Assembly: GCA_044223505.1 (NCBI GenBank) | Contig: JBGALX010000012.1 | Span: 90,174-154,173, forward strand | Direction: 5' to 3' | Length of the DNA: 64,000 bases | Source: Myxococcaceae bacterium | GTDB lineage: Bacteria > Myxococcota > Myxococcia > Myxococcales > Myxococcaceae | Shown here: positions 18,960 to 29,544 of the stretch, piece by piece | How the letters are laid out: each line of letters starts with the position of its first letter | How positions within the stretch are numbered: position 1 is the first letter of the stretch | Position numbers and translations under genes: made by a program | The notes under the pieces: model-generated | What the model saw: the letters and a program-made list of their open reading frames with translations, nothing else | Told to the model about the DNA's origin: nothing | The model's database searches: none

Positions 18960-21512
18960 TCAGCGGCCCTTCAGCGCCTCCAGCGCCCTCGCTCGTGCTG
19001 CATCGAGCGACGCCTTGTCGTCGGGCTCGCACTCGGCCGCAACGCAGAGCTTCACGCCTTCTTCCGCCGCCGCGAGCGCCGCCTTCGGGTCGCCGAGCCC
19101 CAGCTTGGCCTCCGCGATTCCAGCGAGCGGCCCGATCGCCTCGGCCGTGTCGGCCCCCAGCGCCGCGCGGAACACCTCGAGCGACTCGGCGTAGGGCCCG
19201 AGCGCCTGCTCGAACTTCCCCTGCCGCGCGTACGCCTCGCCGAGGTTGCGCGCGGCCGTGCCGATGCGCGGGTGGTTCTTGCCCAGCGTGCGCCGGTAGC
19301 CGTCGAGCACCCGCTGAAACACGACCGTCGCCTCGGGCAGCCGCCCCGCCGTGCCGAGCCCCGCGCCCAGCGCGTTCAGCGCCTGAAACGCGTCGGGGTG
19401 GTCTTCGCCGAGCGCCGCCTCGAGCAGCCGGTGCGACTGCTCGAGCATCGGCAGCGCCTCGTCGAGCTTCTTCTGTCGGAACAGCGTCTGCGCCAGGTTC
19501 GAGAGCGCTCGCGCCCGCGCCGGGTGCTTCTCGCCGAGCCGGCTGCGCACCAGCTCTTCGGCGCGCCGGTGGTAGACCTCGGCCTCCGCGAGCCGGCCAC
19601 GGCGCACCTCGAGCGTGCCGGCAACGGTCGCGAGCCGCTCGTCGAGCGGAGCCTCGCGCGCCGCCGCCGCGTGCGCCTCGCCGAGCTTCACCCACGGCTC
19701 ACCCTCGGCTGGCTTCGCGCGCAGCCACCCCACGAGGAACGCGAGGTCCGCCATCGCCCAGCCCGCGCGCGCCGGGTCCTGCCCGCGCGTCGCGGCACCG
19801 GCGACCTCGAGCAGCTCGGCCTGCGCGTCGTCGAGCGCGCCGAGCTCCTGCTGCGCCCGCGCGTGCTCGAGCTGCAGCGTGGCCCGCGCGAGCGGGTCGT
19901 CGAAGCCGCCGCTCTCGAGCGCGGCGCGGCTCAGCGCCTCGGCCTGCTTGAAGTCACCGCTCTCGGCGAGCGCGACGATGCGCGCGCTCTCGCTCGACGC
20001 CCGCGAGCGCTGCGCGAGCGCCGGCGCGTCGGCCTGGTACCGCGGGCTCGCCGCGGCGCACGCCGAAGGCCCCGGCAGCCGCTCGACCACGCGCACCGCG
20101 CGCGTGACGGTGTCGCTCGCGCCCTGGCTGAGCACCGCCACCACGCTCTCGAGCTCGCCGAGGCGCTCGTCGAGGCACTGCAGCCGGGCGCTCCACAGCG
20201 CAGAGGCGGTGTCGTGCGACGCCTCGCACGCCTCGAGCGCCTGCTGGGCCCAGGCCTGCGCGCGCGCGTCGAGCGCGGGAAGAATGAGGTCGAGCTGCTT
20301 GCTCGCGTAGCTGAGCTTCGTCGCGGTGAACGCCGTCGAGACCTCGGCGCGCTTCGATGGACCCCACGCTTTGCCGTAGCGCTCCGCCGCCAGCGCGCAC
20401 GCGGGCCGCACTCGCGTCTGACGCCCGAGCAGCAGACCCGACGCGAGCGCCACCGCCGCGATGCCCACCAGCGCCAGCGCCAGCCGCCCCGCCCGCCGTG
20501 GCCGCTCGATGGCCCGCTCGAGGTCGTCGACCAGCGCGCTCATCGACGGGTACCGCGCGGCCTCGTCGCGCTCGAGGCCTCGCAGCACGACGCGGCGCAC
20601 CGCGGCGGGGACGTTGGCGTCAGCCGGCTGTTGCACCGTCTGCGCCTTCCCCAGCTCCGCGATGCTGTCGCCCTTGAACGGCTTGGCGCCGTAGAGCGCT
20701 TCGTACAGCGAGACGCAGTAGCTGAATTGATCCGAGGCGGCTGACGCTGGCTCTCCCTCGAGCTGTGCGGGCGCCATGTACGCCGGTGTTCCCAGCATCG
20801 CTCCGCTCTGCGTGAGGCTCTCGCTCAACGGCCCCCTCACTGCAGCACTCTCGCCCACGAGGGGCGCGGAGACCGGCGTCGCGAGCCCGAAGTCGGTGAC
20901 CTTGGCTCGACCGTCGGCGTAGACGAGGACGTTGTCGGGCTTGAAGTCGCGGTGCACGACTCCGGCTTCGTGGGCCGCGGCCAGCCCTCGCCCCGCCTGG
21001 ACGTAGAGGTGAACGACGTCGCGCGGCCCGCGCCGCTCGCGCGTGCGCCAGAGCGACGCCGAGCCTCCGGCGACGAACTCGAGCGCGATGAAGAGCTGAC
21101 CCGCCCACTCGCCGACGTCGAACACCGTCACGACGTTCGGGTGCGCGAGCCGCGCCAGCGTCTGCGCCTCACGTGCGAGGCGCGCGCGGTGCTCGGCCGA
21201 CGACGCGTGCGGTTTGAGCAGCTTGAGCGCCACCTTGCGGTCGAGCTGCGGGTCGTACGCGGCCAGCACCTGGCCGGTCGCGCCCGCGCCGACGCGCTCG
21301 ATGACGACGTAGCGCCCGATGCAGGTGCCCGGCCCGACCGGCGGCCGCGGCGGCGCCGGCGGCTCGACTCCGCTCGTGCGCAACAGCTCGGCGACCGCGC
21401 GCCGGCACTTCTTGCAGCCGTCGAGGTGACCCTCTGCGCCCGACAGCGCTGCCCCGCCGAGCTGGCCTCGCGCCAGGTCGAGCAGCACGTTCTCGTCGGG
21501 GCAGGAGGTCAT
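18960..21512 (-). CDS. Ser/Thr protein kinase with an N-terminal zf-HC2-like anti-sigma motif, a TM segment and C-terminal TPR repeats.
   Basis: N-terminus CPDENVLLDLARGQL...HLDGCKKCR. Kinase motifs HRDFKPDNVL and DFG. About eight TPR-like repeats at the C-terminus. Confidence 0.9.
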   Translation of the reverse strand: MTSCPDENVLLDLARGQLGGAALSGAEGHLDGCKKCRRAVAELLRTSGVEPPAPPRPPVGPGTCIGRYVVIERVGAGATGQVLAAYDPQLDRKVALKLLKPHASSAEHRARLAREAQTLARLAHPNVVTVFDVGEWAGQLFIALEFVAGGSASLWRTRERRGPRDVVHLYVQAGRGLAAAHEAGVVHRDFKPDNVLVYADGRAKVTDFGLATPVSAPLVGESAAVRGPLSESLTQSGAMLGTPAYMAPAQLEGEPASAASDQFSYCVSLYEALYGAKPFKGDSIAELGKAQTVQQPADANVPAAVRRVVLRGLERDEAARYPSMSALVDDLERAIERPRRAGRLALALVGIAAVALASGLLLGRQTRVRPACALAAERYGKAWGPSKRAEVSTAFTATKLSYASKQLDLILPALDARAQAWAQQALEACEASHDTASALWSARLQCLDERLGELESVVAVLSQGASDTVTRAVRVVERLPGPSACAAASPRYQADAPALAQRSRASSESARIVALAESGDFKQAEALSRAALESGGFDDPLARATLQLEHARAQQELGALDDAQAELLEVAGAATRGQDPARAGWAMADLAFLVGWLRAKPAEGEPWVKLGEAHAAAAREAPLDERLATVAGTLEVRRGRLAEAEVYHRRAEELVRSRLGEKHPARARALSNLAQTLFRQKKLDEALPMLEQSHRLLEAALGEDHPDAFQALNALGAGLGTAGRLPEATVVFQRVLDGYRRTLGKNHPRIGTAARNLGEAYARQGKFEQALGPYAESLEVFRAALGADTAEAIGPLAGIAEAKLGLGDPKAALAAAEEGVKLCVAAECEPDDKASLDAARARALEALKGR

Positions 21513-21519
21513 GACGTCG

Positions 21520-28583: not shown

Positions 28584-29405
28584 TCAGCTCTTGAGCAGCT
28601 CGCTGACCGAGGCCTCGAACTGCGAGCGCATCACGGCGATGAGGCTGTCGAGCTCGCTGTCGGCGACGTCGAGCTTCGAGCGCAGCTGCCTTCGCGTCTC
28701 GCTGAACATGAACTGGCGAGCGGCGGTGAGCCAGCGCGACACGGTGATGCGGTGCACGCCCATCATCTGGCCGATGCGGTCGGTGGTGTACCGGCCGGCG
28801 TGGCACAGGCGCATGGCCTGGCGCTGCTCTGCGGGCAGCAGCTTGAAGGCGTCGCGCAGGGCCTCGCGGAAGGGGCCGCGCAGCTGCTCACGCACGAGCT
28901 GCAGGTCGACGTCGTTCGACTCGACGAGGGCGTCGAGCGCCGACTCGTCGACGTTCGAGCGCTTCGTCTCGGAGGCGCCGCGGCGCAGGTTCAGGGCGCT
29001 GCGCACCGAGGTGACGCGCACGAATGAGAGCAGAGAGCCGAGGCCGCCGTACTCGGCGATCTTCGGCTCGCCGTCGCCGGGCATGAGCAGCCGCACGCGC
29101 ACGGCCTGGGCCACCTCGGCGGCGAACGAGGGCTGGGGGTCGATGTGGCGAATGAAGTGGGGCACCTGCACGAGAATCGAGGCGTCGAACGCGGCGTGGG
29201 CCGCCTCGACTCCGCGCGCGCAGGCACACGCGAGGTAGAGGTCGGCGCCCGAGAGCTTCGCGAGCTGATCTGCGCTCGCGCAGTGCCGCTTCACGTGCTT
29301 CGCGAACGTCGCCTCGTCGAGCTCCACGCCGGGCCAGGTGTCGCAGCCGAGCTGCCAAAGCTCGGCGATGCGTGCCGTCACTTCGTCATCGGCGAGTCCG
29401 CTCAC
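28584..29405 (-). CDS. ECF-type sigma-70 family sigma factor (paralog of 22339-23142).
   Basis: Shared motifs: EVTA..., DLYLACACARG and a C-terminal region-4 helix-turn-helix. The C-terminal tail ...SQFEASVSELLKS is like the paralog's ...SFDLSLSRALRSQ. A GTG start was chosen by alignment to the paralog; the start is uncertain. Confidence 0.65.
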   Translation of the reverse strand: MSGLADDEVTARIAELWQLGCDTWPGVELDEATFAKHVKRHCASADQLAKLSGADLYLACACARGVEAAHAAFDASILVQVPHFIRHIDPQPSFAAEVAQAVRVRLLMPGDGEPKIAEYGGLGSLLSFVRVTSVRSALNLRRGASETKRSNVDESALDALVESNDVDLQLVREQLRGPFREALRDAFKLLPAEQRQAMRLCHAGRYTTDRIGQMMGVHRITVSRWLTAARQFMFSETRRQLRSKLDVADSELDSLIAVMRSQFEASVSELLKS

Positions 29406-29544
29406 GGGCGCCGACCCTACCGCATCGGCTGCACGACCGTCCCACGGCAATGACGAGCCGGGTGCAGGCCGCGCAGGCCAACAGGTGCTGCGCGACCTGG
29501 CGCTGCTGGGCGGCGGTGAGGTGACCGTCGATGAAGCGATGCAT
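29386..29544 (-). CDS. Mini-ORF (52 aa) carrying a zf-HC2 anti-sigma-factor zinc-finger motif. Possibly a truncated anti-sigma factor remnant.
   Basis: MHRFIDGHLTAAQQRQVAQHLLACAACTRLV fits the ..DG.L....R.....HL..C..C anti-sigma consensus. GC3 is high through the motif, then coding signal collapses. The ORF ends 20 nt inside the predicted sigma start. Confidence 0.4.
   Translation of the reverse strand: MHRFIDGHLTAAQQRQVAQHLLACAACTRLVIAVGRSCSRCGRVGARERTRR

Follow-up and report, generated by a model that had tools for sequence, protein, structure and literature searches.

The 64,000 nucleotide stretch analysed here (the window; positions 90,174 to 154,173 of contig JBGALX010000012.1 from a Myxococcaceae bacterium, G+C content about 72%) contains genes for two sigma factors, sigma1 and sigma2, and for two Ser/Thr kinases, K1 and K2, which start with a zinc-finger motif of the anti-sigma factor type. 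The same motif is present in a very short open reading frame (ORF) located directly in front of the sigma2 gene, which raises the question whether this mini-ORF is what is left of a kinase gene or encodes a protein with a function of its own. The original prediction, made from the sequence of the window, regarded the sigma2 region as a degenerate copy of the sigma1 region and named a minimal anti-sigma factor as the alternative. Our analysis favours the alternative over the degenerate copy, although it is unproven. With slightly better than even confidence we propose that the zinc anti-sigma (ZAS) module, as we term the domain with this motif, docks the cognate sigma factor, and that the product of the mini-ORF is the stand-alone partner encoded with sigma2, where it acts as a minimal anti-sigma factor.

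A small gene in front of sigma2

Genes in the window were called by third-position GC content, which is 0.87-0.93 in the frame of the mini-ORF from about position 29640 down to 29430. The mini-ORF had been predicted to encode 52 amino acids, starting with an ATG at 29544. It holds up as an ORF, but its length had to be corrected: this ATG is an internal codon located 3′ of the conserved sequence CPDDC, and the sole possible start codon 5′ of CPDDC is the GTG at 29598, which overlaps the TGA stop codon of the upstream gene mem122 as GTGA. The encoded protein, mini-ZAS, is 70 amino acids long. As predicted, it retains the zf-HC2 motif, passing the Pfam gathering score for PF13490 (25.7 bits versus 22.2 bits), and the ORF overlaps the start of sigma2, by 20 nucleotides. 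NCBIfam gives a weak RsrA match for the mini-protein.

For comparison we used two metagenomic contigs that carry sigma2 orthologues, L001 (82% identity to sigma2) and L002 (79%). The frame of the mini-ORF is conserved in both of them; the orthologues encode 68 and 72 amino acids, respectively, and all insertions and deletions have lengths divisible by three. The GTGA coupling to mem122 is kept in all three genomes, and the overlap with the sigma2 start in two of the three. Six cysteines and two of the histidines of the mini-protein are present in both relatives, and the conserved core of the three proteins reads CPDDCT(M/V)HRF(I/L)DG(H/Y)L...VA.HLL.C..C..LV(I/V)AVGR.C.RCG. The coding signal had been thought to fade within the ORF, but the tail GR(S/A)C(S/A)RCG is retained in both relatives. 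The ratio of nonsynonymous to synonymous substitution rates (dN/dS) is 0.26-0.34 for the 48-codon core, compared to 0.27-0.32 for sigma2 in the matching genome pairs. A full-length kinase at the position of the mini-ORF, for which a check of relatives had been suggested, was found neither in L001 nor in L002, so the mini-ORF is not a decaying kinase gene. Taken together, frame, length changes and substitution pattern indicate that the mini-ORF is a real, selected gene under purifying selection, and the view of the sigma2 region as a degenerate copy had to be given up.

The possibility that the mini-ORF is a frameshifted N-terminus of sigma2, generated by a sequencing error, was also rejected, since both have separate frames and stop codons in all three genomes. 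The motif H-x3-C-x2-C was absent from all 120 sigma homologues examined.

A word-indexed homologue search with the mini-ORF gave no match, and the same type of search with the profile of 44 modules described below identified two fragments only, P0121 and P0122, the latter being a truncated kinase. When 1.84 billion representative proteins were searched exhaustively with phmmer, one true relative of the mini-protein was found, the L002 protein; all others were generic ZAS matches. Scanning metagenomes with the mini-protein alignment returned the L001 contig again together with a low-GC chance match (L085), and nothing new. A further contig, L003, from the public sequencing-run assemblies of Logan, contains sigma2, mem122 and lipoprotein 2 genes whose products are all 100% identical to those of the window.

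The ZAS module, the sigma family and the kinases

To describe the module we aligned 44 of its representatives, including those of the mini-protein, K1 and K2 (alignment A2). Invariant columns are C13, H38, C42 and C45 (numbering of the mini-protein), and no others. These four residues are the zinc-ligand set of ZAS domains, H-x3-C-x2-C with an upstream Cys/His ligand, here a cysteine. The alignment of the three zf-HC2 regions from the window, which had been suggested as a check, thus shows that all four ligands are shared; in K1 they are C2 and H27-x3-C31-x2-C34. The Pfam zf-HC2 domain is matched by 39 of the 44 modules; the match of K1 is a weak one (15.7 bits). Compared to the PDB, the A2 profile matches RslA (1.8e-7), DdvA from M. 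xanthus (2.3e-6), RsiW (0.014) and ChrR (0.015), and nothing else of note. As an independent approach, a ZAS hidden Markov model (HMM) was built from the kinase N-termini of other genera only. Among the 1079 six-frame ORFs of the window and the two relatives it identified exactly K2 (59.2 bits), K1 (33.6 bits), the mini-ORF (32 bits) and their orthologues, with no other match up to E = 10.

An AlphaFold2 model of the mini-protein, built on a five-sequence alignment, contains three helices (residues 16-24, 29-41 and 43-54), with predicted local distance difference test (pLDDT) values of 85-92 over residues 11-50. The tail (residues 55-70) is modelled as non-helical and disordered (pLDDT 50-70), and the protein ends 13 residues past its C-terminal CxxC. 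The module has the three-helix bundle (helices 1-3) of class I anti-sigma factors, to which its fold matches.

Both sigma factors belong to NCBIfam family TIGR03001 ("RNA polymerase sigma-70 factor, Myxococcales family 1"), sigma2 with 219.2 bits and sigma1 with 167.4 bits (cut-off 154.6). They are 35% identical (E 4e-30), which agrees with the paralogy that had been predicted. A paper on TIGR03001 was not found by name in the searchable literature. The family alignment (A1; positions given for sigma2) shows an N-terminal extension of about 55 amino acids with a conserved W-P (residues 1-55), an invariant LYLACAC motif containing two cysteines (residues 56-62) and an extra C-terminal amphipathic helix (residues 249-272), in which two serines (S254 and S266) are nearly invariant and are candidate phosphorylation sites. 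The stretch equivalent to DAED in region 2.2 reads xxEVxQ in A1, FAAEV in sigma2 and DRAEE in sigma1, which keeps at least one acidic residue, the register having been set by eye against E. coli sigmaE.

Is the combination of module and sigma factor a peculiarity of this locus? Using an alignment of 37 sigmas of the family, we searched GTDB genomes, one for each species, and obtained 80 loci from Myxococcus, Corallococcus, Archangium, Cystobacter, Sorangium, Kofleriaceae, Nannocystaceae and other groups. The best sigma2 match among the GTDB representative genomes is 43% identical and comes from metagenome-assembled genomes of Polyangiaceae/Polyangia; since none of the 80 loci exceeds this value, the lineage of the window is not among the representatives. 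A ZAS-kinase was found within 6 kb of the sigma gene in 68 of the 80 TIGR03001 loci, and in 65 of these it is directly adjacent: divergent in 38 loci, just downstream on the same strand (comparable to sigma1 and K2) in 18, and just upstream, ending at the sigma start (comparable to K1 and sigma1), in nine. In three loci it is located elsewhere within 6 kb, and in 12 no ZAS-kinase was found. In each of the 68 loci the motif opens a long ORF, with at least 254 residues downstream that almost always contain kinase motifs, and 48 of the 52 ORFs with strict kinase motifs in the surveyed loci have the module. The same adjacency is seen in the window, where K1, like the mini-ORF, overlaps the start of its neighbouring sigma gene, and K2 is located one gene past sigma1. 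The ZAS-kinase is the standard partner of TIGR03001 sigma factors, a family rule. The proposal that these kinases act as anti-sigma factors is thereby borne out with regard to their N-termini, which are of the anti-sigma type and tied to sigma factors by ZAS homology, zf-HC2 matches and gene linkage; the activity itself is part of the model discussed below.

Catalytic motifs are present in both kinases of the window (G-loop, VAIK/VALK, HRDLK/HRDFK..N and DFG), and K2 has APA instead of APE. K1 matches Pfam Pkinase with an E value of 1.5e-46 and has a transmembrane helix (residues 332-353), which is followed by a unique TPR-containing sensor region; for this C-terminal region no homologue was found in any retrieved locus. 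K2 (Pkinase 6.7e-39, TPR_12 2.2e-38) has a single transmembrane helix (residues 341-365) and, outside the cytoplasm, a TPR_12 region. K1 and K2 are intact receptor kinases and look active. In 70 kinases, a median of 50 amino acids separates the CxxC of the ZAS module from the kinase G-loop, and the sequence beyond helix 3 is rich in Ala, Pro (16%) and Gly (11%). A third Ser/Thr kinase in the window (approximately 47500-48330, plus strand) has no ZAS module and no adjacent TIGR03001 sigma, and serves as an informal negative control.

ZAS ORFs of 950-1250 amino acids without an HRDxKxxN match are present in Sorangium (L018, L035 and L040) and Archangium (L028, L032 and L051); they may be pseudokinases or have variant catalytic loops. 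The unrelated proteins P0135 and P0147 have one or two zf-HC2 modules, followed by Pkinase about 100 residues on. ZAS-kinase fusions thus exist with other spacings, possibly outside the TIGR03001 sigma family.

How the module might act

Homology, fold, conservation and gene linkage were observed directly, and they are the basis of the model that we propose here. Binding, inhibition, the target of phosphorylation and the metal content are inferred, and the individual steps (docking, tethering, release and restraint) are modelled on structures of class I anti-sigma factors. In class I domains helices 1-3 bind sigma-4, and helix 4 binds sigma-2, blocking core binding (PMC7406223). By analogy, the three-helix bundle in the first approximately 45 residues of the kinase would dock sigma-4 and hold the sigma factor at the membrane beside the catalytic domain, which would be located at the place of helix 4. 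Driven by its extracytoplasmic TPR sensor, the kinase would decide about release or activation of the sigma factor. The phosphorylated target could be the sigma, or the ZAS module or linker of the kinase itself. This route would apply to the unit of sigma1, lipoprotein 1 and K2, with K1 placed directly upstream of sigma1 in this genome. In the second unit, the putative operon of mem122, mini-ZAS, sigma2 and lipoprotein 2, the mini-protein would be made in step with sigma2, which it most likely binds and keeps in check; it would thus be a minimal anti-sigma factor, probably a soluble one, although a link to the co-translated mem122 protein is possible. A possible second zinc/redox site, formed by C17, H20, C54 and C57, could make the mini-protein responsive to a signal; this site is speculative and deduced solely from conservation in three sequences.

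Several observations weigh against the model. The fourth helix of class I domains is missing in the mini-protein and in the kinases, so full occlusion of the core-binding surface of the sigma factor is not expected; a module lacking helix 4 may dock the sigma rather than fully block it. An acidic residue is kept in TIGR03001 where sigma factors of extracytoplasmic function (ECF) group ECF43 are uncharged, and the published phospho-switch is therefore not simply transferable. An anti-sigma gene located before its sigma gene is an unusual order, and the mini-protein is known from three genomes only, which makes the evidence from conservation shallow. Distances between sigma factors and between ZAS modules are correlated in 54 pairs with r = 0.82 (maximum of 999 Mantel permutations: 0.14), but the correlation between sigma factors and kinase domains is 0.79. 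Since the former is not clearly stronger, the data speak for co-diversifying pairs and not for contact-specific coevolution, and the sigma-ZAS correlation may reflect co-inheritance only. In the mirror tree analysis the mini-protein shows r = 0.45 with sigma1 and 0.44 with sigma2, which assigns no partner; there is a slight preference of K2 for sigma1 and of K1 for sigma2.

With helix 4 missing, a free module may not inhibit a sigma factor alone, and this leads to a different role for the mini-protein, which we regard as possible but unlikely. It could be a decoy on the ZAS-docking surface of sigma2 (or sigma1), competing with the modules of K1, K2 or kinases of the K880 type (named after an 880 amino acid ZAS-kinase in L001), so that the sigma factor would be shielded from the kinase and partners would be switched between three ZAS modules and two sigmas. 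These numbers are found in the window and in L001, and in L002 mem122 and its operon have a K880-type ZAS-kinase as their direct divergent neighbour, which is the commonest arrangement in the family. Beyond the orthologue, the nearest relative of the mini-protein with a full-length module is the N-terminal fragment of a ZAS-kinase of this type (P0131; 46% identity, 19 of 41 core residues). However, the similarity to K1-type modules is barely over background (16-19 of 41 residues versus a median of 13), the mirror tree gave no partner, and the sign of a decoy effect is not fixed, as docking of the kinase could activate or inhibit the sigma.

The module might alternatively be a zinc/redox-sensing or dimerisation element for the kinase without contact to the sigma factor, which would then be controlled by phosphorylation only, as in ECF43. 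The kinase-linked groups listed in reviews and in the ECF reclassification (ECF43, 59-62, 217, 267 and 283) are indeed described as having no anti-sigma factors (PMC7826278) and as being phosphorylated directly (PMC7826278; PMC8999054). X. citri PknS has an uncharacterised N-terminal region of 81 residues with three to four predicted helices (PMC13147305), and the extra cysteines of the mini-protein suggest metal or redox chemistry. Yet the module shares both sequence and fold homology with sigma-binding domains, it is part of nearly all sigma-adjacent kinase ORFs (48 of 52) and absent from the third kinase of the window, which has no sigma, and a role as kinase regulator does not easily account for a free copy whose translation is linked to a sigma gene. 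We therefore consider this explanation improbable. That the mini-ORF is the decaying remnant of a kinase gene without own function is largely refuted and very improbable: an origin from a duplicated kinase 5′ end is plausible, as kinase N-termini are the only other place where the module occurs (68 of 68 loci) and also provide its closest non-orthologous relatives, but dN/dS equals that of sigma2, frame, start, six cysteines and the newly acquired CxxC tail are kept in all three genomes (sigma2 identity 79-82%), the ORF is not followed by sequence derived from a kinase, sigma2 starting within or just after it, and neither relative has the full-length kinase.

As a minimal anti-sigma factor, mini-ZAS would resemble RsrA of Streptomyces and RshA of Mycobacterium, which are likewise small cytoplasmic proteins with an H-x3-C-x2-C zinc site, co-encoded with an ECF sigma that they keep inactive; in the mini-protein the spacing from the first ligand to the histidine fits the ZAS pattern. 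RsrA, in contrast, has approximately 105 amino acids, a complete anti-sigma domain and an ECF12 sigma, whereas mini-ZAS, with 70 amino acids, has no helix 4 and an extra CxxC, is associated with TIGR03001 and, unlike RsrA, has its gene in front of the sigma gene. Restraint of an ECF sigma by a very small protein is also known from the minimal class II, CnrY and NepR, of which NepR switches partners.

The best sequence and fold matches of the module, RslA, RsiW, ChrR and DdvA, are class I factors of the membrane, and K1 and K2 share with class I the N-terminal cytoplasmic module, one transmembrane helix and an extracytoplasmic sensor. They differ in the Hanks kinase domain inserted between module and transmembrane helix and in the missing helix 4. 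A transmembrane Hanks kinase beside an ECF-type sigma, by which the sigma is expected to be regulated, is likewise found in ECF43 (PknT/EcfP of V. parahaemolyticus and PknS/EcfK of X. citri). ECF43 sigmas have uncharged residues in place of DAED, are activated by phosphorylation and are described as having no anti-sigma factors; the kinases of TIGR03001, in contrast, have an anti-sigma module, and the sigma keeps an acidic residue in this region. The ZAS anti-sigma factors RshA and RseA of M. tuberculosis are substrates of the Ser/Thr kinase PknB (PMC8999054). Kinase and ZAS domain thus act on the same sigma there as well, and phosphorylation releases the sigma, but kinase and anti-sigma factor are separate proteins encoded apart, while here they are one polypeptide, with a free ZAS copy in addition.

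The regulation of ECF sigmas has been sorted into anti-sigma factors, Ser/Thr kinases and extensions; here approximately 85% of the sampled loci combine the first two in one protein, in a family that is large across Myxococcota. The ZAS-kinase fusion as standard partner of TIGR03001 sigmas is a variant of known regulatory kinds. In the searchable literature, the coverage of which is incomplete, we found no description of TIGR03001-associated kinases with a fused ZAS module, nor of a three-helix ZAS protein that occurs on its own; the architecture zf-HC2 plus Pkinase is already visible in sequence databases. The free copy of 70 residues is a natural reagent that separates the docking module from the kinase and makes the anti-sigma role testable without the kinase.

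A bolder version of the docking model, to which we give little weight, would have the kinase domain replace anti-sigma helix 4: the ZAS module would dock sigma-4, the catalytic domain would lie against the sigma-2 surface that binds core, and the free mini-ZAS would be a natural competitive inhibitor of this docking. If this were true, one protein would be anti-sigma factor and dedicated sigma kinase, and the three ZAS modules and two sigmas would form a network of switching partners that has no described precedent among ECF sigmas. Should it extend to the N-terminal helices found in ECF43 kinases, PknS for example, one would have to revise the view of kinase-linked ECF sigmas as having no anti-sigma factors.

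Organization of the locus

The predicted gene order of the sigma1 region on the minus strand (kinase, sigma factor, hairpin, Cys-rich lipoprotein and TPR kinase, from 26039 to 18960) was confirmed, as was the lipoprotein gene after sigma2 (Table 1). K1 and sigma1 had been reported to overlap as ATGA; the actual overlap is GTGA, with the GTG start of sigma1 over the stop codon of K1. The hairpin following sigma1 resembles an intrinsic terminator; a simple terminator scan did not pick it out.

Table 1. Genes and sequence elements of the sigma1 and sigma2 regions, with positions in the window.
Feature	Position	Strand	Basis or characteristics
promoter-like element 5′ of mem122-mini-sigma2-lipoprotein 2 operon	30006-30034	minus	GATGTTTCAGC, 12 nt, CGTGTC
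mem122 (122 aa, membrane protein)	29595-29963	minus	translation; several predicted hydrophobic helices
mini-ZAS (70 aa)	29386-29598	minus	three-helix zinc anti-sigma module and conserved C-terminal CxxC
sigma2 (273 aa)	28584-29405	minus	NCBIfam TIGR03001
lipoprotein 2 (144 aa)	28114-28548	minus	third-position GC frame plot; lipobox LAAC
SDR gene	27178-28053	plus	between lipoprotein 2 and MBL-fold gene
MBL-fold protein	26115-27179	minus	
kinase K1 (966 aa)	23139-26039	minus	Pfam Pkinase, TPR repeats, ZAS HMM
sigma1 (267 aa)	22339-23142	minus	NCBIfam TIGR03001
hairpin after sigma1	22298-22323	minus	11-bp perfect stem CCCCTCTCCCC/GGGGAGAGGGG, 4-nt loop, T-rich tail
promoter-like element 5′ of lipoprotein 1-K2	22184-22209	minus	GAGACTTCAAG, 10 nt, CCTGTC
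lipoprotein 1 (204 aa, Cys-rich)	21520-22134	minus	translation; lipobox LAAC
kinase K2 (850 aa)	18960-21512	minus	Pfam Pkinase and TPR_12, ZAS HMM
ZAS module of K2 (about residues 4-48)	21369-21503	minus	C4, then H30-x3-C34-x2-C37

The gene order in L001 is mem122, mini-ORF, sigma2, lipoprotein 2, sigma1, lipoprotein 1 and K2. Lipoprotein 2 and sigma1 are separated there by a gap of 108 nucleotides (11301-11409) without a gene, whereas in the window the genes for K1, the MBL-fold protein and the SDR protein intervene (23139-28053). K1 and sigma1 are therefore not a conserved pair. The K2 orthologue of L001 is 79% identical and is found in the same order, sigma1, lipoprotein 1 and K2. The 880 amino acid ZAS-kinase of L001 is encoded divergently upstream and shows 53% identity to K1 across the N-terminal 320 residues; a DUF2378 gene is also located upstream of mem122 in this contig. 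The conserved units are sigma1-lipoprotein 1-K2 and mem122-mini-ORF-sigma2, the K1-sigma1 junction is specific to this genome, and the locus has been rearranged between close relatives.

The element GATG(T/C)TTCA(G/A)C, followed after 12 nucleotides by (C/G)GTGTC, is kept 5′ of mem122 in all three genomes, where its distance to the ATG does not vary. A related element with a spacing that is three nucleotides shorter is located 5′ of lipoprotein 1 and is kept in the window and in L001. Measured from the TTCA box to the TGTC box, the spacing is 16 nucleotides 5′ of mem122 and 13 nucleotides 5′ of lipoprotein 1. In L001 the elements are found at about 9388-9420 and 12248-12275, in L002 at about 627-660. 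The promoter pattern derived from both elements occurs at two sites only in the 64 kb, a count that is partly circular because of this derivation. The elements may be the target promoters of sigma2 and sigma1, and the operon of mem122, mini-ZAS, sigma2 and lipoprotein 2 appears to be driven by its own conserved promoter.

Homology between the two lipoproteins was rejected by direct comparison, although both have the same lipobox. Lipoprotein 1 has no Pfam or NCBIfam match, and among L001, L002 and the 80 family loci a homologue is present in L001 only (83% identity). Lipoprotein 2 is 75% identical in L001 and absent from L002 and the 80 loci; mem122 is 83% identical in L001 and 59% in L002, and likewise absent from the 80 loci. 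The lipoproteins and mem122 were thus rejected as family-wide components, and by their distribution lipoproteins 1 and 2 are lineage-specific.

Elsewhere in the window, a protein of 730 amino acids (30870-33062, plus strand) contains a shoulder domain of the major vault protein (Pfam MVP_shoulder, 4.7e-28) and is 90% identical to its L001 counterpart; vault-like proteins are unusual in bacteria. A cluster at approximately 36300-38900 (minus strand) encodes a KaiC-like ATPase, a response regulator, a PilZ protein and a second response regulator, and is syntenic with L001 (1-2522).

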